This document shows, piece by piece, positions 930-24,019 of a stretch of DNA of 64,000 nucleotides. How positions within the stretch are numbered: position 1 is the stretch's first letter; each line of letters opens with the position of its first letter. Below the pieces are notes generated by a model. It was not told where the DNA came from. It saw only the letters and a program-made list of their open reading frames with translations, and made no database searches. Position numbers and translations under genes: made by a program. This DNA comes from Escherichia phage Killian. The DNA is taken from the sequence record OQ446694.1. One strand, given 5' to 3'.

Positions 930-957
930 TTTCTGTTCCTCCGTAGTTGATAGTTGT

Positions 958-986
958 ATAGTACCACAGAGGAACAGTCTTGTAAA
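958..986 (-). promoter_or_regulatory. Sigma70-type phage early promoter (-35 TTTACA, 17-nt spacer, extended -10 TGGTACTAT)
   Basis: Minus strand reads GTTTACA-N17-TACTAT with TGn extension; same cassette recurs at least 9 more times upstream of minus-strand genes. Confidence 0.7.
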
Positions 987-989
987 CCA

Positions 990-1292
990 CTAAAAGAAAC
1001 TTCTTTCACAATTTTTTCCACTGAACCATGCGCTCACTGCTTTCTTAGTCTCAGGAGCAGTGTTATCCATAAACCATTCAAAGGCAGCCTTTTTATGATT
1101 CTGGAGGGCTTCTCGGGCTTTAATCTGCTCACGGTCTATTAACACTAACATATGAGCCTTTCTTGTCACCATGGGCTTCTTATGATTTTTTGAATACTCC
1201 CAGTCATTTGTCCATCGCATTGTCGTTGCGAATTGAAATACAGCTTCTTTAATCTTAGTTTCGTAAATTTCACGAGCCTTTGAGTATAACAT
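990..1292 (-). CDS. Hypothetical protein (~100 aa); start moved to second ATG which has a GGAGGT SD
   Basis: ORF track 990..1304; internal ATG at 1292 preceded by GGAGG. Confidence 0.5.
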   Translation of the reverse strand: MLYSKAREIYETKIKEAVFQFATTMRWTNDWEYSKNHKKPMVTRKAHMLVLIDREQIKAREALQNHKKAAFEWFMDNTAPETKKAVSAWFSGKNCERSFF

Positions 1293-1393
1293 CACTACCT
1301 CCATTCACCAGTTTAATTCTAGTCATCTTTTTAATGGCAGTCCATATAATCTATTTCTGAACTGCCTTTTTGTCATAGAAGTCCTCTTATGAA

Positions 1394-2362
1394 TTATTTC
1401 AGAAGAGTAACCTCAGCAATTTCTTCCCAACCGTTTTTGTCGGTCATAATAAAGTCAGCAAGATAAAGAGCAGTACGCAGTGAAACATTGCGTAAACGAT
1501 TAACATTAACTTTCATCCATGATAATGCTTTATAAGTTTCTTCATCAGAAAGACCGCGCTTTTGCATCATGTCAGTTGAAAGAATAACATCTTCAACCCT
1601 GACCATAATTTCTTCATTAGTATGAACACCCAAATCCAAATAAACTGAGCGGGACACTAATGCTTGTAAGTGTGGAGCAAGTTTAGTACCACGGTCTAAT
1701 TCGCGGTCAATGTCAACGTTTGTGATAAAAACAATCGTTCCTTTAAATTCAAACTCACGCTCAATGCCTTTTTCTTCTAAGTAAGAAGATGCAGTGCTCC
1801 AGCAGACTTTACGGGTTTCTCCGGTGTCCAGAGCGGCTTTTAGAAGATTAAGAATGTCCATATCAGAGAAAACATCCACATCATCAATCAAAAGGACAGA
1901 ATTCTCTTCACGATTATTCCAAAGCTGTTCATAAAGACCAATACCAGAGATTTTACCATTAATGCTTTTATATTCAATGTATCCAATATCATTTGCTTTA
2001 TTTAAAGCTTTATCTAAAGAATACGTTTTACCAATACCTGCTGCGCCAGAGATAATTAATGAACGAATATTTCCATTAATAATACCGTTCGTCATCATTC
2101 CCATAACATTAAATCTTTTATTAATGCGGGTTTTCATATCTTCATATGATTCTTTAACTTCTTCAACTTTTACACCATCATATGAAATATCTGATTTGTA
2201 AACCCAAACACCGCGACGTTTACCGTCAATTTCAACAAAAACTTTACCATCTCCTTGTGCATCTACCGGAGCATTATCTGGGAACCATTCGCCTAAGAGC
2301 TCAAAAGTTCCAGAGATTTCTTTACCGAAGTAGATACCCTTATTGATAGTTACAGTTTTCAT
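1394..2362 (-). CDS. P-loop NTPase / AAA-like ATPase (Walker A GAAGIGKT, Walker B VLLIDDVD)
   Basis: Motifs read directly in the translation; start placed at ATG 2362 (MKTVTINKG) with GGAGAA SD rather than the track start 2380, which has none. Confidence 0.7.
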   Translation of the reverse strand: MKTVTINKGIYFGKEISGTFELLGEWFPDNAPVDAQGDGKVFVEIDGKRRGVWVYKSDISYDGVKVEEVKESYEDMKTRINKRFNVMGMMTNGIINGNIRSLIISGAAGIGKTYSLDKALNKANDIGYIEYKSINGKISGIGLYEQLWNNREENSVLLIDDVDVFSDMDILNLLKAALDTGETRKVCWSTASSYLEEKGIEREFEFKGTIVFITNVDIDRELDRGTKLAPHLQALVSRSVYLDLGVHTNEEIMVRVEDVILSTDMMQKRGLSDEETYKALSWMKVNVNRLRNVSLRTALYLADFIMTDKNGWEEIAEVTLLK

Positions 2363-2398
2363 TTTATTCTCCAATTTCACATTTGTTTTGATAGGGTA

Positions 2399-2427
2399 AT
2401 AGTATCACACTACTACCCTACTGTAAA
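2399..2427 (-). promoter_or_regulatory. Sigma70-type phage early promoter cassette
   Basis: Minus strand GTTTACA-N17-TGATACTAT upstream of the ATPase gene. Confidence 0.65.
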
Positions 2428-2431
2428 CAAT

Positions 2432-2695
2432 TTATTTTAATGTTCGCCAAATTTTTACTGCTTCGCGACGAGATACTTCTACAGCTCCAAGTTCTACGGC
2501 TTTTTGGCGGCGGCGCGCGTGTAAGTCATAATGTTTAATGCGTTTATCTTGAAACCAAGAGCGTTTCATTCCTATTGCTTCTGCCATTTCATGAAGCTCT
2601 TCAATATCTCCATCAGTGAACATATGACAATTTTTAGTTGGATGACCGCGAAGTTTCCACCCATGATTCATTAAAACATCTACGTAAACTGTCAT
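2432..2695 (-). CDS. Small conserved hypothetical protein (87 aa), basic C-terminus
   Basis: ORF track; stop/start overlap with upstream gene. Confidence 0.55.
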   Translation of the reverse strand: MTVYVDVLMNHGWKLRGHPTKNCHMFTDGDIEELHEMAEAIGMKRSWFQDKRIKHYDLHARRRQKAVELGAVEVSRREAVKIWRTLK

Positions 2696-2841
2696 TGATT
2701 CTGCTCCAAATATGTTTCTATAATTTTCTGAGCGAGATAAACTGCGTTATCTTCAGTTGCATCTTCTAAGAAATTTTCAAAACAAGCTGAAATCTCTTCT
2801 GTGTCAATCAACTTTTTTACTTCAATTAACGTAGTTTTCAT
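2692..2841 (-). CDS. Small hypothetical acidic protein (49 aa)
   Basis: Track ORF 2692..2886 begins inside the promoter cassette (artefactual MVLYNYQL); true start taken as internal ATG at 2841. Confidence 0.4.
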   Translation of the reverse strand: MKTTLIEVKKLIDTEEISACFENFLEDATEDNAVYLAQKIIETYLEQNQ

Positions 2842-2876
2842 TTTATTCCCCCAAATCCACATCAGTTGATAGTTGT

Positions 2877-2905
2877 ATAGTACCATAAAGCTTTATGCTT
2901 GTAAA
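2877..2905 (-). promoter_or_regulatory. Sigma70-type phage early promoter cassette with A/T-rich upstream element
   Basis: Minus strand AAAGTTGTTTACA-N17-TGGTACTAT. Confidence 0.7.
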
Positions 2906-2928
2906 CAACTTTGTGACGTCATTTTAAA

Positions 2929-2955
2929 CAAAAAAAGGGAGCCCGAAGGCTCCCT
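2929..2955 (-). terminator. Rho-independent terminator (UUCG-loop hairpin GGGAGCC-UUCG-GGCUCCC followed by U7)
   Basis: Perfect 7-bp GC-rich stem with tetraloop and T-run on minus strand, immediately 3' of the nucleotidyltransferase gene. Confidence 0.8.
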
Positions 2956-2956
2956 A

Positions 2957-3970
2957 TCATTTATAATAACTTCGGTGGTTTTCAAGATATACCTCTTCAA
3001 CGAACTTGTCCCAGAACTTCATGTCTACCTTATCAGGCATACCGTTCTTAGCTGCCTGGATGGCTAGGACTTCAACCAAATCAACAGTATCTTCAAGAAG
3101 TTCTTGAACTTCTTTAAATGGTAATTCACCGGCTTTAATCAGCTTAATGATAGAGGCTTCGCGCAATGGGAACGCCAAATCACCTGTTTGGTAGATTTCC
3201 ATCAATTGATACCCTGCGCGATAAGCATGACTCAGAGCTTTCCAGTCAATACCTTCATTAGCTTCAGCCTTACGAGCACGTTCACCATATTCCGCATCGA
3301 GCTTATTCAGAGATTGCTTGAGCTCGATTAAAGACAAGGTGGTTTGGTACTTACGTCCAAGAACAGTATAGAACGTTTGAGGACCTGTTTTCTCGTGGTT
3401 ATGGAATACCCATTCACAGAACTCGTTTTCAGGAAGCCGATGTTTAATATCTACAATTTTAGTACGACGTTGTCCTTGTGTTCCATCTTCTCGGTAATCA
3501 ACCCACTGGTCAGGAATTTGATTAACTACTTTCAATACATCACGTAATGCGGCCAAACGAGAACCCTTAACACCATATTTAGAAGCTTGCTTGCGGACAT
3601 ATCCTAAATAGGATTTCATGTTAGTCGTATAAAACCGTGAACGATTGTCTTGAATAAACTTCCATACATCAGGCAAATCAGATTTAACTACTAGTTCAGG
3701 TGGAGTGTGGAGCATATCCAATGCTACAGTTTCACCATCTGCTGCTAATTTAAAGAAATATTTAAGACTGTATAGTTCATGGTCAATATCATCTTTAGTG
3801 TTTTTAGATGATGTGTTGTTAGTGTTTTTACTCATATGCTCTTTAACATTTCCGATAAGAATATCGCGAGCAGGAGGAACAAAGATTTCTTTAAAATCTA
3901 CATCAGATTCTGGAGTAGAAGTTCCATAAAGATGACTACCAAAATAGCTTTTCATTACTGTTTTCATCAT
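2957..3970 (-). CDS. Nucleotidyltransferase-fold protein (pol-beta-type GS...DxD signature)
   Basis: N-terminal YFGSHLYGTSTPESDVDFK matches the G-S-x(n)-D-x-D minimal nucleotidyltransferase signature; 337 aa. Confidence 0.65.
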   Translation of the reverse strand: MMKTVMKSYFGSHLYGTSTPESDVDFKEIFVPPARDILIGNVKEHMSKNTNNTSSKNTKDDIDHELYSLKYFFKLAADGETVALDMLHTPPELVVKSDLPDVWKFIQDNRSRFYTTNMKSYLGYVRKQASKYGVKGSRLAALRDVLKVVNQIPDQWVDYREDGTQGQRRTKIVDIKHRLPENEFCEWVFHNHEKTGPQTFYTVLGRKYQTTLSLIELKQSLNKLDAEYGERARKAEANEGIDWKALSHAYRAGYQLMEIYQTGDLAFPLREASIIKLIKAGELPFKEVQELLEDTVDLVEVLAIQAAKNGMPDKVDMKFWDKFVEEVYLENHRSYYK

Positions 3971-4440
3971 TCAGCCTTATATTCAATAACAGGACATACT
4001 TTAGCTTTACGAGCTTTTAAAAATTCGACGATAATAGATTTCTTGGGTTGAATAGGAGGTAAACCTTTATACGCCCTATCAATATTTTCTACATGTAAAG
4101 CATAATCCTTTTTCCATTTATAATCTTTATATTTTTCATGCAATTGTGCAGGAATAACAAATGAACCGATAATAAGTAAAACAAGCAAAATGGCAAGTAT
4201 AAATGCTGCTGGAATAAGAGTCCATAAACTACCAAAAATAAGCCATTTCTGTATGATTTCTGCACAGATGATAGTTAGACCTGCGAGTATAGTACATCCG
4301 AAAAAAGAAACGAAAAATGTAGGAATAACAATAGACCAAAAATACGCGCATAGTGTCTTAGGCCGTTTCCATTCATCATTAAACATTTTGAATAATTTAT
4401 AGTGCCAAGAGCTTTCATTAATAATCATAATTATAATCAT
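3967..4440 (-). CDS. Integral membrane protein (157 aa, 2-3 predicted TM helices)
   Basis: Long hydrophobic stretches (FWSIVIPTFFVSFFGCTILAGLTIICA; LIPAAFILAILLVLLIIGSFVIPA). Confidence 0.55.
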   Translation of the reverse strand: MIIIMIINESSWHYKLFKMFNDEWKRPKTLCAYFWSIVIPTFFVSFFGCTILAGLTIICAEIIQKWLIFGSLWTLIPAAFILAILLVLLIIGSFVIPAQLHEKYKDYKWKKDYALHVENIDRAYKGLPPIQPKKSIIVEFLKARKAKVCPVIEYKAE

Positions 4441-4958
4441 CCTTTCATTGAAGGTGTAACAGTTGTTAAATACTTAATCATAGCTTCAGCTTCTGATTTT
4501 GATAATGAAATTTCTCCATTGTTTTGACGAATAGAAATAAAATCTGGATGACGGTCACCACCAGCTTTCAAAACACACATATAAGTATCAGTTTCATCTT
4601 CAATATTTGAAATGATTGAAGCAGTTCCACATGAATGCGGTTTTTGATAAATCAATACGGCTTTTCTTCCACCGTTTGACTGTTCATAAACTTTTAACAC
4701 ATCAAACAAATCACTTCTTTTATCAATAGCTAAGATGTTGTTTTCATCTTCAATGTTAAATCCTTCGGATACTTCATAAAGTGTCACCCATAAATCACCT
4801 ATATCGATAGTAGCATTTTCCTTTCCATGACTTTCAAGAGTATGACAAATTTTCTTGATTTCGTCATAACTCATTTTAATAATATCATCTCCTTGAATAA
4901 GGAAGATGTCATTTTTAAATTCAACACGAATTAAACCACTTTCACTTGAAATAAACAT
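4437..4958 (-). CDS. Hypothetical protein (173 aa), paralog of the adjacent gene
   Basis: C-terminus SKSEAEAMIKYLTTVTPSMKG resembles C-terminus of 4965..5522. Confidence 0.55.
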   Translation of the reverse strand: MFISSESGLIRVEFKNDIFLIQGDDIIKMSYDEIKKICHTLESHGKENATIDIGDLWVTLYEVSEGFNIEDENNILAIDKRSDLFDVLKVYEQSNGGRKAVLIYQKPHSCGTASIISNIEDETDTYMCVLKAGGDRHPDFISIRQNNGEISLSKSEAEAMIKYLTTVTPSMKG

Positions 4959-4964
4959 ATTTCC

Positions 4965-5522
4965 TCACTTTGAAATCATAGTTGGAATGACAGAATCAAG
5001 ATAAGTCTTTAGCGCAATAGCTTCGTCTTTGGTAAATGTGACAATATGTGATCGAAAATCGTCAATTTGACGAATAGTTAAGACATCTCCCTCTTCATAA
5101 CATTTTGATACATTTAAAACAGTTTCATAATTTTGATTACAAGCGTTAGTAATAATAGCATTGCAATTTTTAAACCATTTTAAACTATGTTTTCTTTCAT
5201 TAGAATAATAAAAATATTTAATCTTATCTATAAAACTATCCCAATGGATAACTGATAAACACATTGACTCACTTTTAATATTAAATCCTGGGCATAAAGA
5301 ATAAAAATGAATTTTATGCTCATCATTAATGCTTACAATTTTATCAGTGTAAGGTTTTTCAATTTGGGTTAAATGAATAATTTCGCTAGGCGTAAAATAT
5401 AGCATATCGTCTTCTTGCGTCAAACGATACATATTATTTACTTTTTCTATAGCCAATTCACCAAAAAGTGAACTAACTTCTAGTACTAATCGTTTCATAT
5501 TGATTCTCTTCGACTCACTCAC
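4965..5522 (-). CDS. Hypothetical protein (185 aa), paralog of the adjacent gene; probable GTG start
   Basis: C-terminus TKDEAIALKTYLDSVIPTMISK; AAGGAG SD 9 nt upstream of GTG at 5522. Confidence 0.5.
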   Translation of the reverse strand: MSESKRINMKRLVLEVSSLFGELAIEKVNNMYRLTQEDDMLYFTPSEIIHLTQIEKPYTDKIVSINDEHKIHFYSLCPGFNIKSESMCLSVIHWDSFIDKIKYFYYSNERKHSLKWFKNCNAIITNACNQNYETVLNVSKCYEEGDVLTIRQIDDFRSHIVTFTKDEAIALKTYLDSVIPTMISK

Positions 5523-5657
5523 AATTACATACTCCTTTGAATAATATCAATAATGTTGTTTACCAGATTATAAGTAAACATTGGGTAATTATATTGAATC
5601 ATCACATACACAACAAACAAAACTTTCATTCTCTTCTCCTTGGCAGTTGACAAGATT

Positions 5658-5686
5658 ACTATACCATAACCTTGCCAACTTGTAAA
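5658..5686 (-). promoter_or_regulatory. Sigma70-type phage early promoter (GTTTACA-N17-TGGTATAGT)
   Basis: Cassette variant on minus strand. Confidence 0.6.
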
Positions 5687-5852
5687 CCATTAAATGACGT
5701 TTTCAATAAAATTCTGAAGCTTTGTGTGAGCATCAACCATGATTTTCATTTCTTCCTTTGCAAAAGCTGTACCTCTTTCACGAGAAGAATACTCATAGTC
5801 AGAAACTGCATTAGCGTATTCTTCAATTAGCTTCATTAAAAACATCTGCTTT

Positions 5853-6047
5853 TCAGTTTTCATTATTCCACCTAATCATTTCAAGATATTGAACTAACTT
5901 AGCTTTGGATTTATCCAAATCCTTTTTAGCTGCTTCTATACCATCGTATGAATATCCTTCACAATGCTCAACTGCCAATTGGTATGAATCTATTTCAATA
6001 TCACGTGCTAATTTAATGATTTTTTCAAACTGTTCACGTGTTAGCAT
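5853..6047 (-). CDS. Small hypothetical protein (64 aa)
   Basis: ORF track. Confidence 0.45.
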   Translation of the reverse strand: MLTREQFEKIIKLARDIEIDSYQLAVEHCEGYSYDGIEAAKKDLDKSKAKLVQYLEMIRWNNEN

Positions 6048-6049
6048 AC

Positions 6050-6253
6050 TTAAACTCTCGTATTATGATCGATAATTTCATCAAGAAACATATCTAAAGC
6101 TTCTACAGCATTATCAACTTTAGCTTCAAGTTCTTCAGCGCCTTTATTTGCAATGCCTGCCGAAAACCAAGCAAAGTCACTAAGTTCCTCATCTGCTTTG
6201 CGAATTAAAGCTACCAATTCTTTAATTTTATCTGCTTGTTCGATACTAATCAT
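6050..6253 (-). CDS. Small hypothetical acidic protein (67 aa)
   Basis: Start moved to internal ATG that overlaps the upstream stop (TAATG-type coupling). Confidence 0.45.
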   Translation of the reverse strand: MISIEQADKIKELVALIRKADEELSDFAWFSAGIANKGAEELEAKVDNAVEALDMFLDEIIDHNTRV

Positions 6254-6441
6254 TATTCCACCACATATGAAAGAGAGAATATTGCACACGCCATATGAGT
6301 TGCAGCTTCATCACACATATCATAACGTTTCTTAAGAAGTTCTACAAGTTCTTCACTTGTAACTTCATCCATGTCGACGAAAAAATCACCATTAATGATG
6401 ACGTAAATATTTCCTTCTTGATTAAGTGCTTCAATTTTCAT
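6253..6441 (-). CDS. Small hypothetical acidic protein (62 aa)
   Basis: Track start lies inside the promoter cassette; true start ATG at 6441 with GGAGAA SD. Confidence 0.45.
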
Positions 6442-6469
6442 GATGTTCTCCTCTTTATCCGATGGTTGT

Positions 6470-6498
6470 ATAGTATCACAACTCAAATGGAAAGTAAA
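6470..6498 (-). promoter_or_regulatory. Sigma70-type phage early promoter cassette
   Basis: Minus strand TTTACT-N17-TGATACTAT. Confidence 0.6.
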
Positions 6499-6507
6499 CC
6501 GGTAAAA

Positions 6508-6531
6508 TGAAAAAAGTCTCCCGAAGGAGAC
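6508..6531 (-). terminator. Rho-independent terminator (GUCUCC-UUCG-GGAGAC hairpin plus U-run)
   Basis: Hairpin and T-run on minus strand 3' of rI.-1. Confidence 0.75.
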
Positions 6532-6536
6532 TAATG

Positions 6537-6923
6537 TTATTCGAGGGAAAGAAGATATTTGCTCTGGTAAAACATTCCAGTAATATCATCTATCGTGCTT
6601 TGAATGGCTGGAGGCATTTCTTTATAAATGCTGTTAGATTGGTCTAGTATGCGATCAATCATTTTAATTGTGTCGGTAGGAAGTTTACTAGCATCTGGAA
6701 TTGAAGGTGTGTATTTTCTACCAGAATACCCCAAATATTGCTCGCCAAATTTATCAATCAAATCTGGCAACTCAGAGAAAATAAAATCGTATGCCTTGTG
6801 TCTAACATAACTTTTAGTTTCAAAATGCGCAGAATGAAAATAAGCTTGTGCAGCCATTAATAAACCTAAGTATTCATCTGCCTTTGAAGGTTTTCCACTT
6901 TGTGAAAAGTCGCTGAATTTCAT
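6537..6923 (-). CDS. rI.-1-position conserved hypothetical protein (128 aa)
   Basis: Position immediately downstream of rI; size as I recall for T4 rI.-1. Confidence 0.6.
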
Positions 6924-7213
6924 TCAGTCTCCAATTTAATGTTCATAATTCTAGCGTATGATTGTGCCATCTCCGCGCCTCGTTCTATACATTCAAAATC
7001 GGAAGAGCACGGGTCATTTTTATAGGTCGTTCGCATAAAACTATAGAACTGTTCAGATGATTCTACGCTTTTATTTTCAAAAAGCATATAAACATGTCTA
7101 ATACCAGATTCCATAAATTTATCAAAATGAGGATCGACATTCGCTTCAATCGGTGGAGATAAAGCAAATGCTAATCCTAGCATGGCAAATAATGCCGTTG
7201 CTTTTAAGGCCAT
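6920..7213 (-). CDS. rI: Lysis-inhibition antiholin RI
   Basis: 97-aa protein MALKATALFAMLGLAFALSPPIEANVDPHFDKFMESGIRHVYM... near-identical to T4 RI; N-terminal signal-anchor. Confidence 0.92.
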   Translation of the reverse strand: MALKATALFAMLGLAFALSPPIEANVDPHFDKFMESGIRHVYMLFENKSVESSEQFYSFMRTTYKNDPCSSDFECIERGAEMAQSYARIMNIKLETE

Positions 7214-7225
7214 AAAGGCCTCCTA

Positions 7226-7438
7226 TCATTTTTGTCCTGTATTTACTTTATGCCGATGCACGGCCTTAACTTTATCAAGGTATTTTTCAAAATTTCGCAA
7301 TCTAGTATAGTCTGCCGGAGATTGGTTGAGTGATACTTCTCGACGCAAAGCTGAAATGATATTTCCAACTTCCCTACGAATTTCATCTAATTGAAGAACA
7401 GTAAGATTGCGAAGTTGCTTTTCAGTTAATTGTAGCAT
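7226..7438 (-). CDS. rI.1-position small protein (70 aa)
   Basis: ORF track; location between tk and rI. Confidence 0.55.
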
Positions 7439-7480
7439 ATATACCCCTTTAGTTAGATAAACCTATTTATAACTTTTGCA

Positions 7481-8062
7481 CTAACCGAGCTTTTTAGTTA
7501 ATTCATTCCAATGTTTTCTGCACAAAGAAACATAAATTTCATCACCAATACAGATTTGATTACCTTCTTTAACTGGTGTTCCATCTTCCATTAATCGAGC
7601 CGTCATAATCGCTTTTTTACCGCAATGACAAACTGCCTTTAGTTCAATAAGTTTATCTGCAATCGCCAAAAGTTCTTTAGAACCTTCAAATAATTTTCCG
7701 GCGAAATCAGTCCTTAGACCATAAGCCATAACAGGAACATTATATGTATCAACAATTCGACTTAATTGATGCACCTGTCCAGTTTTTAAAAACTGGGCTT
7801 CATCTACAAATACACAATGAATATCTTTTTGTGCTTCAGCCCATTTATAGAACTCAAAAATATCCATATCATCCGTAATAATATTCGCTTCCTGCTTAAT
7901 TCCAATACGAGAAACGACTTCACAGACAGAATCGCGAGTATCAATAGCAGGCTTAAGAACTAATACACCCATTCCACGTTCTTTATAATTATGCGCAGCA
8001 GTCAAAAGAGAAGCAGATTTTCCAGCATTCATTGCTGCATAAGTAAAAATTAAACTCGCCAT
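7481..8062 (-). CDS. tk: Thymidine kinase
   Basis: 193 aa; P-loop AMNAGKS, CxxC...CxxC zinc ribbon near C-terminus; matches T4 Tk. Confidence 0.92.
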   Translation of the reverse strand: MASLIFTYAAMNAGKSASLLTAAHNYKERGMGVLVLKPAIDTRDSVCEVVSRIGIKQEANIITDDMDIFEFYKWAEAQKDIHCVFVDEAQFLKTGQVHQLSRIVDTYNVPVMAYGLRTDFAGKLFEGSKELLAIADKLIELKAVCHCGKKAIMTARLMEDGTPVKEGNQICIGDEIYVSLCRKHWNELTKKLG

Positions 8063-8071
8063 ATCACCTTC

Positions 8072-10172: not shown

Positions 10173-10179
10173 GCTTACC

Positions 10180-10641: not shown

Positions 10642-10668
10642 GTTATTCTCCTCTTAACTGATAGAAAA

Positions 10669-10697: not shown

Positions 10698-10700
10698 CAG

Positions 10701-13620: not shown

Positions 13621-13691
13621 ATGTTTCCTTTAAATATTTTAATTAGTAATTGTGAATATATTATCGCAGTTTTAGGAGAAAATAAACAACT

Positions 13692-14222
<531 letters not shown>

Positions 14223-16476: not shown

Positions 16477-16495
16477 TCCTATTTACTCCAAGTAT

Positions 16496-16513
16496 AAGGG
16501 GCCGAAGCCCCTT
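16496..16513 (-). terminator. UUCG-tetraloop hairpin (AGGGGC-UUCG-GCCCCU); RNA stabiliser or weak terminator
   Basis: Identical hairpin sequence recurs at 58245..58262; no strong U-run. Confidence 0.5.
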
Positions 16514-16517
16514 ATCA

Positions 16518-17111
16518 TTATTTCAGAGAATTAATGTATTCCTGAACATCGGCAGAGGTAGTTTCAACCCCAGAAATATTACCATTAAAGGTTTCAACTC
16601 GAGCAAGGGTATCTTCAATATCAACCTTAGTCAGTGCTGCAATTTCAACTACATCATCGGCAGTACTAATTCCAAGGGCATTTGCCGCACGAGTTTCACG
16701 GATATATTCCAATTTAACTGCAAGCTCTTGACGAGCATCATCTAACTCAACTACTTTCTTGGCGATTTCAATTCGCATTTCAGCATAACCGTCAGCCTTA
16801 GTAGTCAACTGCTCAGCTGTTCGACGATATAGTAAACCGAGTTTAGCATGCATTGTTACATCTTGACCTTCGGAAAGAAGTTTACGAATTTCACGCTCTT
16901 TTGATTCAGCCTGTCGATTCTTTTCGACAATAAGTTCACGAATACGTTTTTCTTCATTAATAGATTTAACAGAAGCAGTTTTTAGATCTTTAATTTTATC
17001 AAGCAGTTTTGCTGCTGCAGCAGTATACTGTTCTTCAACAGATAGATTTTTAGCCATAGCAGAACCAAGTTTAGTGCGAATAAACTCAACAATTTTCTTT
17101 AGTGTGTTCAT
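16518..17111 (-). CDS. Coiled-coil protein (197 aa, e.6 position), PspA/IM30-like features
   Basis: Heptad-rich charged sequence; weak resemblance to PspA family, inference only. Confidence 0.5.
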
Positions 17112-17153
17112 AGTATTTCCTTAAGTTGATTAAAAATAAAATCTGTGAAAGAA

Positions 17154-17684
17154 TTATATCATACTATTTAAGAGATGTAAACTATTTTTAATTTTACAAA
17201 TTCGTTCAGCTTCTTCAACAGCGGCGGCGATAATGCTTTTAGCTATAGGAGTATTAATACTAGTAGCTTTTACACTTAACACGATTTCTTTATCTTTACT
17301 AGGCCAACCCCACGATTTTTCACCATGAGTGCCTTTAATTACAGCAGACACCTCAAGTGAGCATCCATTATCACATGTTTTTACATTAACAACCCAAGGG
17401 TCACTTTTCTCAACCGGTTTATCAATCGGTTTATCCCAGTAAATATTAAGAATACGTGGGACATCAAATTTAGCAGGGCAAATCTTAACCGTAAGACCTT
17501 CGCTTTCTAGCCAATTAATAAGAGGGCGTTCATACATGCGGCGATGTGGGCTTCGGACTCGACAAGCCTTGTGCCCATTGCTTGCGGCTTCACTAAGCTG
17601 TTCTAATACCTGCTTTTGCATTATTGATAAGATACCATCAAAAGATTTTTCGGAAGTTTCATTCAGTTCTGTATAAAGAGACAT
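17154..17684 (-). CDS. Hypothetical protein (176 aa, e.7 position)
   Basis: ORF track; GAGGAAA SD. Confidence 0.55.
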   Translation of the reverse strand: MSLYTELNETSEKSFDGILSIMQKQVLEQLSEAASNGHKACRVRSPHRRMYERPLINWLESEGLTVKICPAKFDVPRILNIYWDKPIDKPVEKSDPWVVNVKTCDNGCSLEVSAVIKGTHGEKSWGWPSKDKEIVLSVKATSINTPIAKSIIAAAVEEAERICKIKNSLHLLNSMI

Positions 17685-17739
17685 AACGGTTTCCTCAAGT
17701 TACAGGCTCATAATATCTCAATCATGAGCCTGTGTAAAC

Positions 17740-18003
17740 TTATTTCATATTATTAAAATATTCTTCTGCGATTTCGTCGTTATCATGGTAAACTTTAGAA
17801 GACAGTTTAACATAACCTTCAGCAGTGAACATGTTAATCACAACATTTACAGTATACCACTGACCATCTTCATTACCCATTACTGCGTAAGTTTCAAACA
17901 TCGGATGATCAGGACCGATAACTTTAATATCATTCACTGTACGACCGAAATCTTCTGAAACGCATTTCATAAAGAAGTTGAACAGTTCGCCGTAATTATC
18001 CAT
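17740..18003 (-). CDS. Small hypothetical protein (87 aa, e.8 position)
   Basis: Track ORF starts inside the promoter cassette (MVLYNYQL artefact); true start ATG 18003 with GGAGAA SD. Confidence 0.5.
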   Translation of the reverse strand: MDNYGELFNFFMKCVSEDFGRTVNDIKVIGPDHPMFETYAVMGNEDGQWYTVNVVINMFTAEGYVKLSSKVYHDNDEIAEEYFNNMK

Positions 18004-18047
18004 TTCATTCTCCAAGTTGTTTTTCTGTATCAGTAGTTGATAGTTGT

Positions 18048-18076
18048 ATAGTACCATGGAAGAACAGGGATGTAAA
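18048..18076 (-). promoter_or_regulatory. Sigma70-type phage early promoter cassette
   Basis: Minus strand GTTTACA-N17-TGGTACTAT. Confidence 0.7.
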
Positions 18077-18208
18077 CAGTTTTGTGAAAAATTTTTTAAA
18101 AAGTTTTAGGGAATTCTAGGGAAGGGAGGGGCAATTAAAGGATAGGATAATATATTATAAAGGGTAGAAACTAAATGATGCTTAGAGAGGTCCAGAAAGG
18201 CCTAGATA

Positions 18209-18235
18209 CCAAAAAGCCCTATCATTTAGATAGGG
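18209..18235 (-). terminator. Rho-independent terminator (CCCUAUC-loop-GAUAGGG plus U5)
   Basis: 7-bp stem and T-run on minus strand just 3' of the 18244..18807 gene. Confidence 0.7.
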
Positions 18236-18243
18236 ATTTAAAA

Positions 18244-18807
18244 TTATTTATCTAGTTTAGTTATTATAGCTTCTGCGGCAGCTTTTAGCTTAGATGCAGT
18301 GTTAATACGATTTTTAATTTCAGTATACGCATCGCCAAGAACATCAAGGCTATCAGAATAAACACTTACACTATTGCGTTCGCTATTTGAAATAAAACCT
18401 TTAGTTTTACGATCAAAATCGGTGTACACGTCTTGAAGATCACGGGCAGCCTTCTTTGCATCATCCAATGCATCAAGAGCTTTATTCAAAGCATTAACAT
18501 ATTTTTTAGTGTCAAACATATTCTTAGAAATTTTAACAGGTGCACGTTCAGGAGTAGCTAAGGCAGATTTAGGAACCTGAGCGCCAGATGCCAATTTCTT
18601 AGAAATTTTGAAAAACGCTTTATTGAATTTATTTTCTTGACTCATCGTAAAAGAACTATTATCGATGTTATACATTTCAATAGCTTTAGCTTTCCACTTA
18701 AGAAAATCGCCACGGTCTTTTGGGTCTAATTGAAAGAATACTTTAGTAAGATCTGCTTCAGACGGTAATTTTGCTGCTTCGGTCAAAAATTCGGCATAGG
18801 TTTTCAT
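18244..18807 (-). CDS. Capsid-targeted internal protein (CTS-bearing, 187 aa; IPIII-like in size)
   Basis: N-terminus MKTYAEFLTE is a capsid-targeting sequence with a gp21 protease site (L-T-E); basic, low-complexity mature region. Confidence 0.65.
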   Translation of the reverse strand: MKTYAEFLTEAAKLPSEADLTKVFFQLDPKDRGDFLKWKAKAIEMYNIDNSSFTMSQENKFNKAFFKISKKLASGAQVPKSALATPERAPVKISKNMFDTKKYVNALNKALDALDDAKKAARDLQDVYTDFDRKTKGFISNSERNSVSVYSDSLDVLGDAYTEIKNRINTASKLKAAAEAIITKLDK

Positions 18808-18895
18808 TTAAAATCCTTGAAATAATTTATCGGTTGGTTATTAATTATTTATTACTTTGTTATTATCCGCAACAGCATTCTCTATGTGATTCAAA

Positions 18896-18924
18896 CTAAA
18901 AAGCCCCAACCTTTCGGTCGGGGC
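18896..18924 (-). terminator. Rho-independent terminator ending the tRNA/stable-RNA operon (GCCCCGACC-GAAA-GGUUGGGGC plus U5)
   Basis: 9-bp stem (one G-U pair on the minus-strand RNA), GAAA tetraloop, T-run. Confidence 0.8.
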
Positions 18925-19238
18925 TAAGCCTTGCGGCAACCTTGTCGGGGTTCCACCTGCTAAGGCAAGTGTTTGTACGAAACGCCGGGATTTGAACCCG
19001 GTTATTAAGCAGTTGACGCTACTCAATATTTTTAAAAGGCCATATCTCGACCATATCCGAACGTTCCGTCAAAAACGCTACTCGGCTTACGGCAAAGATA
19101 TTTCCTCGAATCGATAATTCGGTGCGCCGTTTCTGCTGTGATGTAAGAGGGCATCAACAAATCATAAAGATTTATTAACGCAATTCCTTACCCAGGGAAC
19201 ATCAGTCCGACGACTTACCGGTAGCGACCCGGCTTCTT
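18925..19238 (-). ncRNA. Stable small RNA region downstream of tRNA-Arg (T4 species 1/species 2-like RNAs); boundaries approximate
   Basis: Non-coding GC-rich structured sequence with a tRNA-like T-arm (CCGGGTTCAAATCCCGG) between tRNA-Arg and the operon terminator; the only track ORF here (18841..19026) is implausible. Confidence 0.45.
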
Positions 19239-19241
19239 GTC

Positions 19242-19318
<77 letters not shown>

Positions 19319-19321
19319 TAA

Positions 19322-19987
19322 TTAAAATTTCATTTTTCGACCTTTAAACCATCCTTCTGGAATTGGGTCAGTTTTCTTAATACGTTTAGAAACTTTTTCA
19401 TCTAATGAATGAATCCACATCATACCAAATTGGGAATTCTTTTCGCCCTGTTGATGTTTATTTCTGGCGTGAGATTCTTTCATTTTATTAATAGTTTCAG
19501 GAGTATGGGTCTTGCCCAAGAAAGATTTAGTATTTAAAAATTTCTCTCTATACTTAGGATTATCCCAAAGCTGTTTAAACCTTTCTGAACCCATTTTACG
19601 ATATTTTTCTTTAAGGTCTGGGTCGTTCTCAAATCTGGTTTTAAAAGCGGCAGCTCCTTTTAAGGAAGCTTCTTTCTTTTTATCCAAATATTCTTTAGTG
19701 TTTAAATGGTCCCAACCACCTTCACCACCTAATTTCAAATTATAAACATCAGGGCGCTTTAAAAACTCTTCAGTCACAATATTCTTTTCTGACTCAAACA
19801 TAGAGGTTTTATCGTCAAAGAACTCTAATATTTCTTTAGAAAAATTTTCTATACCATACTTATCTTGGGCTCTTTTTAATAATTTACCAGAACCCATATA
19901 TCCATCATCTAAATTTTCGGTAGAATGAGCGCCTATATAGATTTTATTATTAATTTTATTTGTTATTTTATAAATGTAATGGAACAT
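19322..19987 (-). CDS. segB: GIY-YIG homing endonuclease SegB
   Basis: 221 aa; N-terminal GIY-YIG motif (HYIYKITNKINNKIYIGAH); located between tRNA-Ile and tRNA-Arg as in T4. Confidence 0.85.
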   Translation of the reverse strand: MFHYIYKITNKINNKIYIGAHSTENLDDGYMGSGKLLKRAQDKYGIENFSKEILEFFDDKTSMFESEKNIVTEEFLKRPDVYNLKLGGEGGWDHLNTKEYLDKKKEASLKGAAAFKTRFENDPDLKEKYRKMGSERFKQLWDNPKYREKFLNTKSFLGKTHTPETINKMKESHARNKHQQGEKNSQFGMMWIHSLDEKVSKRIKKTDPIPEGWFKGRKMKF

Positions 19988-20018
19988 AAATATCTCCTAT
20001 TTCTAAGAGTATTTATGT

Positions 20019-20090
20019 TCCCAAAATATGGCCCTGGGTGGAATTGAACCACCATCTGGCGATTATGAGTCGCTTGCTTGAACCTTCCAG
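20019..20090 (-). tRNA. tRNA-Ile (anticodon CAU; T4 tRNA-Ile homolog, often auto-called tRNA-Met)
   Basis: Manual fold: acceptor GGCCCTG/CAGGGCC, anticodon loop CTCATAA, T-loop GGTTCAATTCC. Confidence 0.75.
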
Positions 20091-20096
20091 CTACAG

Positions 20097-20169
20097 GGCC
20101 TTGATATGCTGATTGACGGAATCGAACCGCCGACATCCTCATTACAAGTGAGGTGCTCTACCTACTGAG
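20097..20169 (-). tRNA. tRNA-Thr (anticodon UGU)
   Basis: Manual fold: acceptor GCTGATT/AATCAGC, anticodon loop CTTGTAA, T-loop GGTTCGATTCC. Confidence 0.8.
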
Positions 20170-20176
20170 CTAAATC

Positions 20177-20263
20177 AGCGAAATTACGGAGGCGATAGGA
20201 TTTGAACCTATGAGTCGCCGGAGCGACTGCCGGTTTTCAAGACCGGTGCATTAAACCACTCTG
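20177..20263 (-). tRNA. tRNA-Ser (anticodon UGA), type II with long variable arm
   Basis: Manual fold: acceptor GGAGGCG/CGCCTCC, anticodon loop CTTGAAA, variable arm GTCGCTCCGGCGACT. Confidence 0.8.
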
Positions 20264-20265
20264 CC

Positions 20266-20339
20266 ACGCCTCCAGTCTCCGCGGCAGGATTTGAACCTGC
20301 GACATTCTGCTCCCAAAGCAGACGCTCTACCAAACTGAG
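20266..20339 (-). tRNA. tRNA-Pro (anticodon UGG)
   Basis: Manual fold: anticodon stem CTGCT/AGCAG with loop TTTGGGA; 2 nt from tRNA-Ser (dimeric precursor arrangement). Confidence 0.8.
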
Positions 20340-20352
20340 CTACACGGAGTAA

Positions 20353-20516
<164 letters not shown>

Positions 20517-20532
20517 CCATTCTCGCTCTATA

Positions 20533-21165
20533 TTATTTATTACGTGAAAAAGATTGTTCTATCAATTCTGGACACTTTCGTTCTATCCATTTTCTAGCTT
20601 TTTGTGGGCTTATACCTATTATTTTAGCAGCTTTACTAACCCATCCAAATTTAGAATAATCGATTTTAACTAATTCTTCGTAAATTTCATCAGTTAAAAT
20701 CTTTTCATTAATATTTACCAGTAAATGATATAATTTATTATCATTAGCAATTTTAATGAATCTTTTATAGTTTCCGCCTTTACTTAAACCTAATGAAGTA
20801 ATTGCAGATGATATAGTAGCCGAATTTAATAGTGCGTTTAAAATTTCTTCATCACTAACATTATAACGCTTTTTATTATTTTTAATATTTTTACCAGCAA
20901 AAGTATCAGTTTGCGAATGGCAATTTGGACATAATAATCTTAAATTTGATTTAAGATGATTTTTGTTATTTCCATCAATATGGTCTAATTGCAGAACAAT
21001 ATGCTTATTTTGCCATTTTGAAATTTTACAAATTGCACACTCATATGGAAAAATATTTTCTTTTATTATTTTGTCTTTCAGCTTTCCTGTACTAAAATTT
21101 GGATGTTTTCCTTCAAAAATTTCAGCTAATTTAGTATCCATAATATAATTCCCAATTATTAACAA
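20533..21165 (-). CDS. HNH homing endonuclease (zinc-finger HNH core plus C-terminal helix-turn-helix-like DNA-binding region)
   Basis: CxxC...HIVLQLDHIDGNNKNHLKSNLRLLCPNCH HNH/zinc motif; gene abuts the 5' end of the tRNA operon. Confidence 0.8.
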   Translation of the reverse strand: MLIIGNYIMDTKLAEIFEGKHPNFSTGKLKDKIIKENIFPYECAICKISKWQNKHIVLQLDHIDGNNKNHLKSNLRLLCPNCHSQTDTFAGKNIKNNKKRYNVSDEEILNALLNSATISSAITSLGLSKGGNYKRFIKIANDNKLYHLLVNINEKILTDEIYEELVKIDYSKFGWVSKAAKIIGISPQKARKWIERKCPELIEQSFSRNK

Positions 21166-21240
21166 AGGCTCTCAAGCAAGAACCCTTGATGATAGAGGGT
21201 ATTAATCAGTGCGATATGAGTTAATAATAACAAATAATTC

Positions 21241-21756
21241 TTAAAGCAAATTAAACATTTTAACGGTCGGCAAAACAATTTCTTCTTCTATATAAGAGTA
21301 TTTAACACTCTCAACTACACGCAAAAAATCATAATCATAATACTCAGAAGCATTACCTAAAATATTAATAAGTCCTTCAAGCACCTTATTACTATTCACA
21401 AAGAATAAGTCAAATACACGTTCTTCATCTTCTTCAGATTTATTACCAAGATCAACTTCTATGCGAAAGACCTTTTTAATGAATTCTGGATAAAGCTGGT
21501 CTGAGAACAGTCCTTCAACCAAGTATTCATAAATAAAAAGAGATTGCTCGCTGAACAAACCATTACCGCAATAGCGCTCAATTTTAGTACTAGAATATCT
21601 GCTTTTAAATTTCTTTAAAAGATACTGAAATTGTAAGATTTCATGCTCTTCTACGCCAAACAGTGTTTTAGTTTTATAGTTGTCACCATCATTTTCCCAG
21701 GTAGTGACATCAATTACGTAGCCCTGCGGAATTGTAGTACCTAAACAAATATTCAT
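21241..21756 (-). CDS. Hypothetical protein (171 aa)
   Basis: ORF track; no recognisable motif. Confidence 0.5.
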   Translation of the reverse strand: MNICLGTTIPQGYVIDVTTWENDGDNYKTKTLFGVEEHEILQFQYLLKKFKSRYSSTKIERYCGNGLFSEQSLFIYEYLVEGLFSDQLYPEFIKKVFRIEVDLGNKSEEDEERVFDLFFVNSNKVLEGLINILGNASEYYDYDFLRVVESVKYSYIEEEIVLPTVKMFNLL

Positions 21757-21759
21757 TTT

Positions 21760-22050
21760 TCACCACGCTGCGTTAATGTAAGTATATTTAATACATTCAA
21801 GACCCAAAGGATTCTTGAAAATATCATATTCAAGAGGACCTTTTTCTGTTTCAATAAAGAAATCAAAATTTACTGTATTAAATTTACGTTCTTCCTTCAC
21901 TAATTTAACTTGAGAAGATGAACGGTCAATGTAAACCCTTTCAACTTCAAAACATGTTAAAATGCCATAATCATCAATCAAAGCTTTAGCCGCGTCTTGA
22001 TCATATTTATATCCATTTTCAATGGATGATACTTTCGCATAAAGAATCAT
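21760..22050 (-). CDS. Hypothetical protein (96 aa)
   Basis: ORF track. Confidence 0.5.
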   Translation of the reverse strand: MILYAKVSSIENGYKYDQDAAKALIDDYGILTCFEVERVYIDRSSSQVKLVKEERKFNTVNFDFFIETEKGPLEYDIFKNPLGLECIKYTYINAAW

Positions 22051-22052
22051 TA

Positions 22053-22451
22053 TCAGCCTTCATCAACAATAGTGTGAGTATTGGCATTTACGATTTGCCA
22101 CCAGTCAAATCGATTAGAACCCATCGGTTTGTTTTCATTTTCTTTGATAATGTCACGGAGTTCATCTTCAGAGAATGCTTTAGCGATTAAATCGGTATAC
22201 CCACCACGGGGATAATAATTATCACCTGCAAACAAAAGGAAATTTACCTTCCCGGAAGCAACATATGCTTCCTTAGGATACTTGTTTCCTGCGTGGTCAA
22301 CCACTTCAATATAACGGTAAGGAATATCGGTTCTTTCAACCCATTGCCATGCCGCCGCAGGGGAATCGAAAGCATCTACACCTAAACGATTATCTTCATC
22401 TTTAGACGGATTATTTTCGTAATCCGCATATACATAATATTCAACGTTCAT
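22053..22451 (-). CDS. Hypothetical protein (132 aa)
   Basis: ORF track. Confidence 0.5.
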   Translation of the reverse strand: MNVEYYVYADYENNPSKDEDNRLGVDAFDSPAAAWQWVERTDIPYRYIEVVDHAGNKYPKEAYVASGKVNFLLFAGDNYYPRGGYTDLIAKAFSEDELRDIIKENENKPMGSNRFDWWQIVNANTHTIVDEG

Positions 22452-22636
22452 TATTCACCTTTAGAAATTTTATCCATAACGATAGCAATTAAACCAATTA
22501 AAAATGCTACTACAAGTGAAAAAACATTTTCTGCCGTAGTCAATAATCCGCATATAAATCCAACAAACATTGAAAAACTGAAAGCGGAAGCAGAAATTGC
22601 AATAGCAACATTTCGAATTAATTCACAACGTTTCAT
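22451..22636 (-). CDS. Small two-helix membrane protein (61 aa)
   Basis: Track ORF begins in the promoter/upstream gene; true start ATG 22636 with GAGGAGAA SD; sequence MKRCELIRNVAIAISASAFSFSMFVGFICGLLTT... Confidence 0.45.
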   Translation of the reverse strand: MKRCELIRNVAIAISASAFSFSMFVGFICGLLTTAENVFSLVVAFLIGLIAIVMDKISKGE

Positions 22637-22664
22637 TTTATTCTCCTCAGTAGTTGATAGGGTA

Positions 22665-22693
22665 ATAGTATCACTACCCCATCTAAAAGTAAA
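22665..22693 (-). promoter_or_regulatory. Sigma70-type phage early promoter cassette
   Basis: Minus strand TTTACT-N17-TGATACTAT. Confidence 0.6.
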
Positions 22694-22694
22694 C

Positions 22695-22928
22695 TTATTT
22701 TTTACGAAAAATTGATTTATTTTCTGCTGCCCATTTTTCAATAACTGCAACAGGACCAGTAACAACAATTTTATCACCGTAATCTTCTGCGGCGAGTTGA
22801 CCGAAATTATCTAATGCATCACGAAGAACTCCATGAGGCATTTCACCCATTTTATCTTTCTTGCCGGTGTAAATAAACTCAGCTTTTACATCAGAAGATT
22901 CAGCGATAAACTCTTTGAAAGTTTTCAT
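22695..22928 (-). CDS. Capsid-targeted internal protein (CTS-bearing, ~77 aa) at the ipI locus
   Basis: N-terminus MKTFKEFIAE (CTS with gp21 site I-A-E); start taken at second ATG. Confidence 0.6.
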   Translation of the reverse strand: MKTFKEFIAESSDVKAEFIYTGKKDKMGEMPHGVLRDALDNFGQLAAEDYGDKIVVTGPVAVIEKWAAENKSIFRKK

Positions 22929-22962
22929 TTTGATTTCCATTTGGTTTTGTTTTGATAGGGTA

Positions 22963-22991
22963 ATAGTATCACAGCTAAAACCCTATGTAAA
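22963..22991 (-). promoter_or_regulatory. Sigma70-type phage early promoter cassette with conserved upstream AACTTTGTGAAATTATTTT element
   Basis: Minus strand GTTTACA-N17-TGATACTAT. Confidence 0.65.
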
Positions 22992-23004
22992 CAACTTTGT
23001 GAAA

Positions 23005-23262
23005 TTATTTTAAATCTTCTAATCGTTTCTTCATCTTAGAACCATTCTTAGCGATTTCTCCTGCATCAGAGCATAATGCTAAAAGCGCTTTAACTTTAGT
23101 TTGGTCTCCTTTAAAAGATGAAGGATCGACTGCAGCAGCAAGTTCTTTAATACGAGAGAAAAGACGCTCGGCTTCAGCTAAAGCCATTCCAAGCTTTACT
23201 TCCATACCGTGGGAAGATTCAGTGATAGTAGTTTTTGTAGCAAACTCTTTGAAAGTTTTCAT
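23005..23262 (-). CDS. Capsid-targeted internal protein (CTS-bearing, 85 aa) at the ipI locus
   Basis: N-terminus MKTFKEFATKTTITE (CTS-like, I-T-E cleavage site); AGGAAA SD. Confidence 0.6.
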   Translation of the reverse strand: MKTFKEFATKTTITESSHGMEVKLGMALAEAERLFSRIKELAAAVDPSSFKGDQTKVKALLALCSDAGEIAKNGSKMKKRLEDLK

Positions 23263-23292
23263 TTTATTTTCCTAATTAATTTTGATGAGGTA

Positions 23293-23321
23293 ATAGTATC
23301 ACTACTAAAACCCCGTGTAAA
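23293..23321 (-). promoter_or_regulatory. Sigma70-type phage early promoter cassette with conserved upstream element
   Basis: Minus strand TTTACA-N17-TGATACTAT; upstream AACTTTGTGAAATTATTTT identical to the copy at 22992..23010. Confidence 0.65.
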
Positions 23322-23334
23322 TAACTTTGTGAAA

Positions 23335-24019
<685 letters not shown>

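Follow-up and report, generated by a model that had tools for sequence, protein, structure and literature searches.

Probable T4-type early-promoter cassettes in the coliphage Killian, and complementarity between their spacers and the leaders of their genes

What are the near-identical segments that stand ahead of so many minus-strand genes in Escherichia phage Killian, and could they do more than start transcription? In the 64,000-nucleotide stretch of this phage analysed here (sequence record OQ446694.1; hereafter the window), an earlier note had described a ~45-bp early-promoter cassette, reading GTTTAC(A/T), 17 nt and TGnTACTAT behind an A/T-rich element. It had also held an ATG inside the cassette responsible for false N-termini of two open reading frames (ORFs). 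We found that the element is very probably a T4-type early promoter in a cassette of the promoter-early stem-loop (PeSL) type, with a predicted hairpin layer in ~60% of the copies. The observation as first given amounts to a rediscovery of the T4 early-promoter/PeSL cassette and holds no new biology.

The repeated element and its T4 counterparts

The window was searched for GTTTAC-N13-17-TGnTAnnAT, which gave nine exact matches against 0.15 expected from shuffled sequences. All nine were on the minus strand, as the earlier note had said of its cassettes, each ahead of a Shine-Dalgarno sequence (SD) and ATG, and all had a spacing of 15. Allowing one mismatch added four more, at 5658 (TATAGT), 13286 (GTTTAT, TAGTAT), 23293 (ATTTAC) and 17710 (without TG). 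This makes 12-13 early-type copies, in line with the 'at least ten' first claimed, plus one degenerate copy at 13658-13687; motif scans found no cassette copies in the late-gene part of the window. The eight sites originally listed are all present; seven (958, 2399, 2877, 6470, 18048, 22665 and 22963) match GTTTAC-N15-TGnTACTAT exactly, and 23293 has ATTTAC instead. The spacing first given was mistaken: GTTTACW followed by 17 nt and TGn had just one, chance-level match. Counted between the sigma-70 hexamers TTTACW and TAYWAT, the correct 15 nt from GTTTAC to TGn become 17 nt. A generic sigma-70 consensus scan, with 94 matches against 79 expected, showed no enrichment and thus had no discriminating power here.

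TGn and N15 were present in all 12 clear early copies, and the -35 GTTTAC was exact in ten (exceptions: GTTTAT at 13286, ATTTAC at 23293). The -10 hexamer was TACTAT in 8, TATAAT in 2, TATAGT in 1 and TAGTAT in 1, so that the reported excess of TACTAT over TATAAT is real. So is the A/T-rich element ahead of the -35: the UP region (-60 to -37) has a mean A+T content of 79%, against a background of 65%. The base 7 nt after the -10 was A at 11 of 13 sites, and at every copy a leader of 19-38 nt led to the SD and ATG.

In an unbiased repeat search, the cassettes formed the eight largest repeat families of the early region, with common blocks of 47-78 nt. This puts the element's length above 45 bp: its ends are the UP region and the SD/ATG, and a stem-loop is one of its components. 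Alignment of the copies, as the earlier note had proposed, divided the element into a UP block (often TTTCACAAAGTT), the -35, a TGnTAYWAT box with adjoining CTATCAA(C/A), and GGAGAATAAAATGAAAA, four modules in all. At 958-987, for example, the minus strand reads GTTTAC-aagactgttcctctg-TGGTACTAT, then acaactatcaactacGGAGGaacagaaaATG. The 21-mer TGGTACTATACAACTATCAAC occurs three times, unchanged, in the window, and the same block is found at six T4 sites.

By its sequence, the source of the window is a Tequatrovirus, a T4-like coliphage: positions 1-20000 share 95-97% identity over >90% of their length with many Tequatrovirus genomes, EPIMAM01 and UGKSEcP2 being among the closest relatives. The first 26 kb follow T4 colinearly, beginning at nrdC.7/nrdC.8 and ending at gene 2, with eight indels or replacements interrupting, and their genes lie on the minus strand like the early and middle genes of T4. 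In Rfam, positions 1-26000 matched tRNAs only.

A motif scan of three early/middle-gene stretches of T4 (~120 of 169 kb, the late-gene block at 77-126 kb lying outside) gave 37 minus-strand sites, among them TACTAT 15, TATAAT 7, TATTAT 6 and TATAGT 4. Since TACTAT outnumbers TATAAT there as well, the bias is a property of T4 itself. Syntenic T4 motifs lie at 53943 (nrdC.8), 55384 (nrdC.10), 57990, 58780, 62797 (regB), 69967, 70696 (e.8), 73572 and 73939 (ipI), and the regB promoter of T4 is described in the literature as a 'typical early promoter'. The T4 GenBank and RefSeq records annotate no promoter features, except for a note naming Pe133295, a start 36 nt below the motif at 133331. The same +7 rule holds at the middle promoter P1, whose start at 75393 lies 36 nt below the T4 look-alike motif at 75429, i.e. 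7 nt after the -10. T4 early promoters (Pe) are reportedly treated by Liebig & Rueger in 1989 and by Wilkens & Rueger. They are unusually strong, with UP, -35, TGn and -10 elements, further conserved positions and GTTTAC as the -35 (Hinton 2010, PMC2988021; Nolan 2006, PMC1524935). PeSL cassettes have been described in T4-like phages, with the PST/T4 consensus TTTACW-N17-TAYWAT (Arbiol 2010, PMC2839356; Comeau 2014, PMC4122927).

These comparisons support the view that the copies belong to the T4 early promoters, in their PeSL cassette form, already known and ordinary for this phage group. The early-promoter reading of the earlier note is thus upheld by the consensus and T4 orthology, with its spacing corrected and its cassette enlarged by a stem-loop component. 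During the first minutes after infection, unmodified host sigma-70 RNA polymerase would start at these promoters, so that every early gene or small block of genes has a strong transcript to itself. Transcription would start ~7 nt downstream of the extended -10 TG(G/A)TA(C/T)(T/A)AT, usually at A, and the 19-38-nt leader would carry a GGAG-type SD. Two points weigh against this identification: promoter activity, although supported by orthology and consensus, is like the start sites a prediction for this phage, and TACTAT differs from TATAAT at two positions.

The copies, all on the minus strand, are as follows.

958-987: early promoter of the nrdC.8 orthologue (ATG 929); GTTTAC-N15-TGGTACTAT; predicted transcription start 951; identical motif in T4 at 53914-53943.
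2399-2428: early promoter of the nrdC.10 orthologue (ATG 2362); TGATACTAT; same cassette as T4 146143.
2877-2906: early promoter of a 49-aa ORF (true ATG 2841); TGGTACTAT; T4 55355-55384.
5658-5687: early promoter of the mobD.2 orthologue (ATG 5629); TGGTATAGT; hairpin GGCAAGGTT/AATCTTGTC bracketing the -10.
6470-6499: early promoter of the mobD.5 orthologue (ATG 6441); TGATACTAT; T4 58751-58780.
10669-10698: early promoter of regB (ATG 10641); TGGTATAAT; predicted transcription start 10662; T4 62768-62797.
13286-13315: early promoter of denV (ATG 13260); GTTTAT...TGATAGTAT; spacer TTCTCC... pairing with the SD GGAGAG.
13658-13687: degenerate cassette copy upstream of ipII (ATG 13620); GTTTAT-N15-CGATAATAT; repeat family D8.
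17153-17182: early promoter of the e.6 orthologue (ATG 17111); TGATATAAT; -10 overlapping the stop codon of the upstream ORF.
17710-17739: probable early promoter without TG; GTTTAC-N15-AGATATTAT; hairpin AGGCTCAT/ATGAGCCT; T4 70330-70359.
18048-18077: early promoter of the e.8 orthologue (true ATG 18003); TGGTACTAT; T4 70667-70696.
22665-22694: early promoter of the trna.4 orthologue (ATG 22636); TGATACTAT; T4 73543-73572.
22963-22992: early promoter of an extra internal-protein-like gene (ATG 22928, MKTFKEF...); TGATACTAT.
23293-23322: early promoter of the gene at the ipI position (ATG 23262); ATTTAC...TGATACTAT; 89% identity over 71 nt with the 22963 copy (22950-23020 against 23280-23350).

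Within the lysozyme gene e, at 13767-13796 (minus strand), is a further promoter-like site with a good extended -10, GTTAAC-N15-TGGTATAAT. Conserved in T4 (66578-66607), it lacks a start codon in its vicinity.

Complementarity between promoter spacers and leaders

The -35/-10 spacer is complementary to the leader of the gene's own transcript in ~60% of the window copies, and in many of them it is the spacer's 3' part that forms the reverse complement. The complementarity of the two arms was significant in about 8 of 13. We compared each promoter's own spacer/leader duplex with cross pairs between promoters by permutation.

Window, 13 promoters: own mean -11.6, cross mean -7.7 kcal/mol; p<5e-5.
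T4, 32 promoters: own mean -9.3, cross mean -5.7 kcal/mol; p<1e-5.
Other T4-like genera in IMG/VR, 33 promoters: own mean -12.3, cross mean -7.5 kcal/mol; p<1e-5.

In none of the three sets was any permutation as extreme as the observed pairing. Twelve of the 32 T4 promoters reached z<-2.7, and 67% of the IMG/VR promoters were at -10 kcal/mol or stronger. The effect was specific to the spacer: in T4, z<-2.5 was found for 11/31 spacers, 1/31 UP regions and 0/31 coding segments. For IMG/VR, single-protein scans returned few relatives (11, 8 and 3 loci), and a raw motif scan returned mostly unrelated contigs, from which the T4-like ones alone were kept.

The 3' arms fell into two classes. The class I arm begins in the final bases of the -10 and those transcribed first; class II ends 1-6 nt ahead of the AUG and hence lies over the SD. 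Besides the hairpins given with their promoters above, three minus-strand stems are needed below.

933-977: nrdC.8 hairpin around the -10; spacer arm CTGTTCCTCTG (977-967), SD-covering arm CGGAGGAACAG (943-933); duplex -18.5 kcal/mol, the best among all cross pairs.
Promoter at 2399: hairpin GGGTAGTAGT/ACTATTACCC, the -10 box included.
10650-10688: regB hairpin; spacer arm CCTCTTGACTG (10688-10678), SD arm CAGTTAAGAGG (10660-10650); duplex -21.8 kcal/mol.

Folds were computed for RNA beginning at the predicted start and for read-through RNA initiated upstream. The former, taken as far as AUG+15, is essentially without structure, at 0 to -2.6 kcal/mol for 12 of 13 sites (-6.7 at 2877), and the read-through RNA gave -15 to -31 kcal/mol at 12 of 13 (-9.0 at 17153). 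The computed probability that the segment from SD to AUG is unpaired changed accordingly at four genes.

nrdC.8: 0.83 in the proximal RNA, 0.25 in the read-through RNA.
regB: 0.71 proximal, 0.19 read-through.
denV: 0.69 proximal, 0.31 read-through.
e.8: 0.82 proximal, 0.32 read-through.

At 2399, 2877, 5658, 22665, 22963 and 23293, the computed accessibility of the SD was unchanged in read-through RNA.

The pairing recurs across lineages with other sequences. Of the 10 regB lineage sequences analysed, 8 show pairing of spacer and SD, with at least six different stem sequences.

Tequatrovirus: spacer arm CCTCTTGACTG, SD arm CAGTTAAGAGG.
Clade at 77% identity: spacer arm CTCCTCTAGTTG, SD arm CAACTAGAGGAG.
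Two Dhakavirus-like types: CTCCTGTAAG/CTTACAGGAG and CTCCTGTAG/CTACAGGAG.
Gelderlandvirus: spacer arm TTCTCCTCTTTATG, SD arm CATAAAGAGGAGAA.
Karamvirus and Jiaodavirus: two-part stems.

One regB lineage has a class I stem only. For nrdC.8, three clades carry three different stems, two of which cover the SD. Within Tequatrovirus, compensatory or G.U-preserving differences were found between 5658 and T4 57990, between T4 20612 and 57990, and at the gene 1 promoter. Taken together, the complementarity between spacers and leaders, including the anti-SD type, is well supported at the sequence level, both statistically and comparatively. We found no statement of it in the PeSL papers or in the 2010 post-transcriptional review; the classical T4 promoter papers may mention it.

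Possible roles of the hairpins

A precedent for such a layout exists in T4. Transcripts of e, soc, 49 and I-TevI that are initiated upstream fold a helix sequestering the SD/AUG, and a promoter inside the helix yields a shorter, translatable RNA without the 5' arm; the 2010 review names only these four genes for promoter-in-hairpin control (Uzan & Miller 2010, PMC3014915). By analogy, RNA from a cassette's own promoter would lack the 5' arm and be unstructured, and RNA reading through from upstream would fold because the promoter spacer complements the gene's own leader. The -10 box would then sit in the loop or stem of the hairpin. Where the SD forms the 3' arm (nrdC.8, regB, denV), the read-through fold would block ribosome binding, tying translation of these genes to the brief activity of their own early promoters. 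From the computed folds, we infer SD occlusion in read-through transcripts for class II hairpins. A class II fold would also shield GGAG from RegB, which RNA structure is known from the literature to block.

We tentatively extend this to a possible rule for the Tevenvirinae: in ~40-65% of early promoters, the spacer may have been selected to complement the gene's own leader, and in about a third of promoters it may serve as an anti-Shine-Dalgarno sequence, so that the promoter would also be a switch responding to transcript origin. If true, only own-promoter RNA would be translatable and RegB-sensitive and read-through RNA would be silent. The logic of the late promoter in a hairpin would then be widened to the early class, as a conserved general design rule beyond e, soc, 49 and I-TevI. 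The spacer-leader complementarity, should it operate in RNA, would account for the individual translational timing of densely packed early genes despite heavy read-through, and also for the sparing of some GGAG sites by RegB.

Several findings weigh against such a switch. Hairpins cover the SD in only 3-7 of 13 cases, and the others bracket or include the -10 alone; SD occlusion is therefore not the whole story and offers no specific account of class I hairpins. The regB hairpin was absent in three lineages, Muldoonvirus, Tulanevirus and Krischvirus. The preference for the sense strand is modest in T4 and the window and absent in the sample from other genera (p 0.27), which leaves room for a DNA-level role. 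Finally, since cassettes can move as units, stems that differ between lineages do not strictly count as compensatory mutations that arose independently.

The function first proposed for PeSL is that the stem-loops are transcription terminators or attenuators insulating neighbouring early units. One RB49/phi1 PeSL stem-loop cuts downstream lacZ expression about as rrnB T1 does, and stem-loops between the -35 and -10, or overlapping the -10, have been reported (Arbiol 2010, PMC2839356). Canonical intrinsic terminators stand just upstream of two window cassettes.

2936-2955, minus strand: AGGGAGCCTTCGGGCTCCCT + T7; the -35 of the 2877 promoter follows 30 nt downstream.
6515-6532, minus strand: AGTCTCCTTCGGGAGACT + T6, immediately upstream of the 6470 promoter.

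The hairpins bracketing the -10 are of another kind, however: they are followed by A-rich leaders without U tracts, their loops are large (up to ~17 nt), and a terminator scan called none of them. Moreover, the class II 3' arm ends over the SD, a placement that a terminator does not need. We therefore consider termination an unlikely role for these hairpins.

A role of the inverted repeats at the DNA level, as a cruciform or single-strand hairpin that favours recombination among cassettes (mini-circles, gene shuffling) or affects promoter opening, with the RNA fold incidental, seems improbable to us. Synteny breakpoints relative to T4 do cluster at cassettes (see below), PeSL mini-circles have been demonstrated in RB49/phi1 (Arbiol 2010, PMC2839356), and in the other genera neither strand, sense or antisense, folds better than the other. 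Sense stems, however, hold more G.U pairs than antisense stems in T4 and the window (24 against 7) and are more stable there (p 0.002-0.014 for the bias in G.U and stability). The 5658 copy differs by two A-to-G changes from T4 57961-57990, which has GACAAGATT there, and its pairing is kept only as G.U. Homologous recombination between cassettes requires common sequence, not a palindrome, and a DNA-level role leaves the exact overlap with the SD unexplained.

That the elements are MotA-dependent middle promoters, or repeats without promoter activity, is hardly credible: one look-alike (24771) is the orthologue of a middle promoter with a MotA box, but the 12 early-type copies have GTTTAC at the -35 and no TGCTT MotA box, their T4 orthologues are none of the ~58 mapped T4 middle promoters, the regB promoter is called early in the literature, and the strict orientation and distance to the SD/ATG argue for function. 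The full box, (a/t)(a/t)TGCTT(t/c)A at -30, is absent from all 12 and was found at 24771-24800 alone. Because of this box and its orthology to P1, we rejected that site as an early copy and classed it as a middle promoter.

24771-24800, minus strand: middle promoter of gene 1 (T4 P1 orthologue; gene 1 ATG 24745); MotA box TGCTTCA, TGTTATAAT.

Here the spacer TTTCATATG exactly complements CATATGAAA, which spans the gene 1 start codon. The T4 counterpart is TTTTGTGTG/CACATGAAA, which differs by a compensatory change of G-C to A-T and by G.U pairs. This pairing suggests that the promoter-in-hairpin layout may extend to a middle promoter, P1.

Gene exchange, false starts and known systems

Returning to the early promoters and their cassettes, 6 of 16 synteny breakpoints relative to T4 fall inside or within 30 nt of a cassette, where 1.25 are expected (p~0.0008). 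Such clustering is what PeSL shuffling predicts, and it supports the view that the copies behave as PeSL-type cassettes, preferred recombination sites for inserting, deleting and swapping early genes. One insertion illustrates this.

2375-2832, minus strand: 458-bp insertion relative to T4, holding two small ORFs and the 2399 promoter; cassettes 2399 and 2877 stand at its borders, and its junctions lie in GGAGAATAAAATGAAAACT.

Another gene stands in place of T4 e.7 between cassettes 17153 and 17710, and an extra internal-protein-like gene sits between cassettes 22665 and 22963. The ipIII gene (T4 65834-66415) is absent from the window, with the junction in a repeated promoter/leader/CTS block. 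The T4 denV cassette (65385-65413) recurs, ~49 of 50 nt identical, ahead of regB in the Escherichia phage LHE83 (Dhakavirus). Whole promoter/leader cassettes thus appear, from such sequence matches, to move between genes and genera.

Several neighbouring features were recorded alongside. The replacement of e.7 is an unrelated 176-aa ORF (17154-17684, minus strand) whose TAA stop lies inside the TATAAT -10 of the next promoter (17153-17161). Two small genes, 22695-22928 and 23005-23262 (minus strand), both begin MKTFKEF..., a start resembling the N-terminus that targets T4 internal proteins to the capsid. Their promoter cassettes, one to each gene, are nearly identical, and T4 has ipI alone here. 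The denV homologue (12709-13260, minus strand) has 183 aa, against 138 aa in T4, with 78% identity over the first 137 residues. It runs on for 45 more codons into the next ORF, and the closest relative is annotated likewise; its stop codon appears, by this comparison, to have been lost. Further insertions relative to T4, at 18236-18894 and 20530-21784, with ORFs of 187, 210 and 171 aa, have no cassettes at their borders and flank a cluster of seven tRNAs (19245-20526). The first is bordered by terminator-like hairpins at 18217-18235 and 18902-18925. A 166-kb T4-like contig (IMGVR_UViG_2974770551_000001) carries six copies of GTTTAC-aagggctataggtt-TGATACTAT-agccc... in 11 kb, each with a GGGCTATAG/CTATAGCCC stem, an array much denser and more uniform than that of the window.

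The cassette also affects gene calling. ORFs 2692-2886 and 17740-18057 both translate from MVLYNYQL, and the earlier note was right to call this an artefact: the base before TGGTACTATACAACTATCAAC is A at 2886 and 18057, so that A-TGGTACTAT contains a repeated in-frame ATG.

2842-2886, minus strand: artefactual 15-codon N-terminal extension MVLYNYQLMWIWGNK, beginning at the A-TGG of the extended -10; annotated short in the relative.
18004-18057, minus strand: artefactual 18-codon extension of e.8, MVLYNYQLLIQKNNLENE; T4 e.8 has 87 aa; annotated short in the relative.

The real starts are 2841 (MKTTLIEV...) and 18003 (MDNYGELF...), and from the latter the product has 87 aa, as in T4 e.8. For both ORFs, EPIMAM01 has been deposited with short, T4-like starts. 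The corruption of ORF calls is thus genuine but specific to longest-ORF calling, and the annotation of the closest relative is unaffected. Other in-frame extension starts are TTG 6486 and GTG 22777, within or upstream of a cassette, and GTG 2380 in a leader. The motif model GTTTAC-N15-TGnTAnnAT marks the starts of transcription units in T4-like genomes, which gives it practical value for annotation, and it flags false extensions of both kinds, MVLYNYQL and the GTG/TTG extensions at 2380, 6486 and 22777.

Compared with T4 early promoters, nothing essential differs. The window sites share the UP element, the GTTTAC -35, TGn, a -10 of TAnnnT, the 17-bp hexamer spacing and the preference for TACTAT; they stand ahead of early genes on the counter-clockwise strand and are positional orthologues of the T4 sites. 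A few spacers and leaders have changed, and two promoters have apparently been swapped or duplicated: the window has an extra promoter at 2399, and its denV promoter resembles the T4 ipIII promoter, not that of T4 denV.

With PeSL, the window shares a repeated composite cassette of AT-rich region, early promoter, stem-loop, SD and ATG, with copies concentrated in variable early regions beside indels and replacements. In PST/T4 the PeSL stem-loops lie just upstream of the promoter, whereas in most window stems the partner of the -35/-10 spacer is the leader or SD, as in the RB49/phi1 PeSL subclasses that overlap the -10. The PeSL papers take the stems for terminators; our reading is that a subset would occlude the SD.

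With the e, soc, 49 and I-TevI type of T4, the window genes nrdC.8, regB and denV share the geometry and the computed folding. In that type, the internal promoter is late (gp55; TATAAATA) and translation is delayed to late times. In the window, by contrast, the internal promoter is of the early sigma-70 kind (with P1 as a middle-promoter case), and translation would be limited to the earliest minutes.

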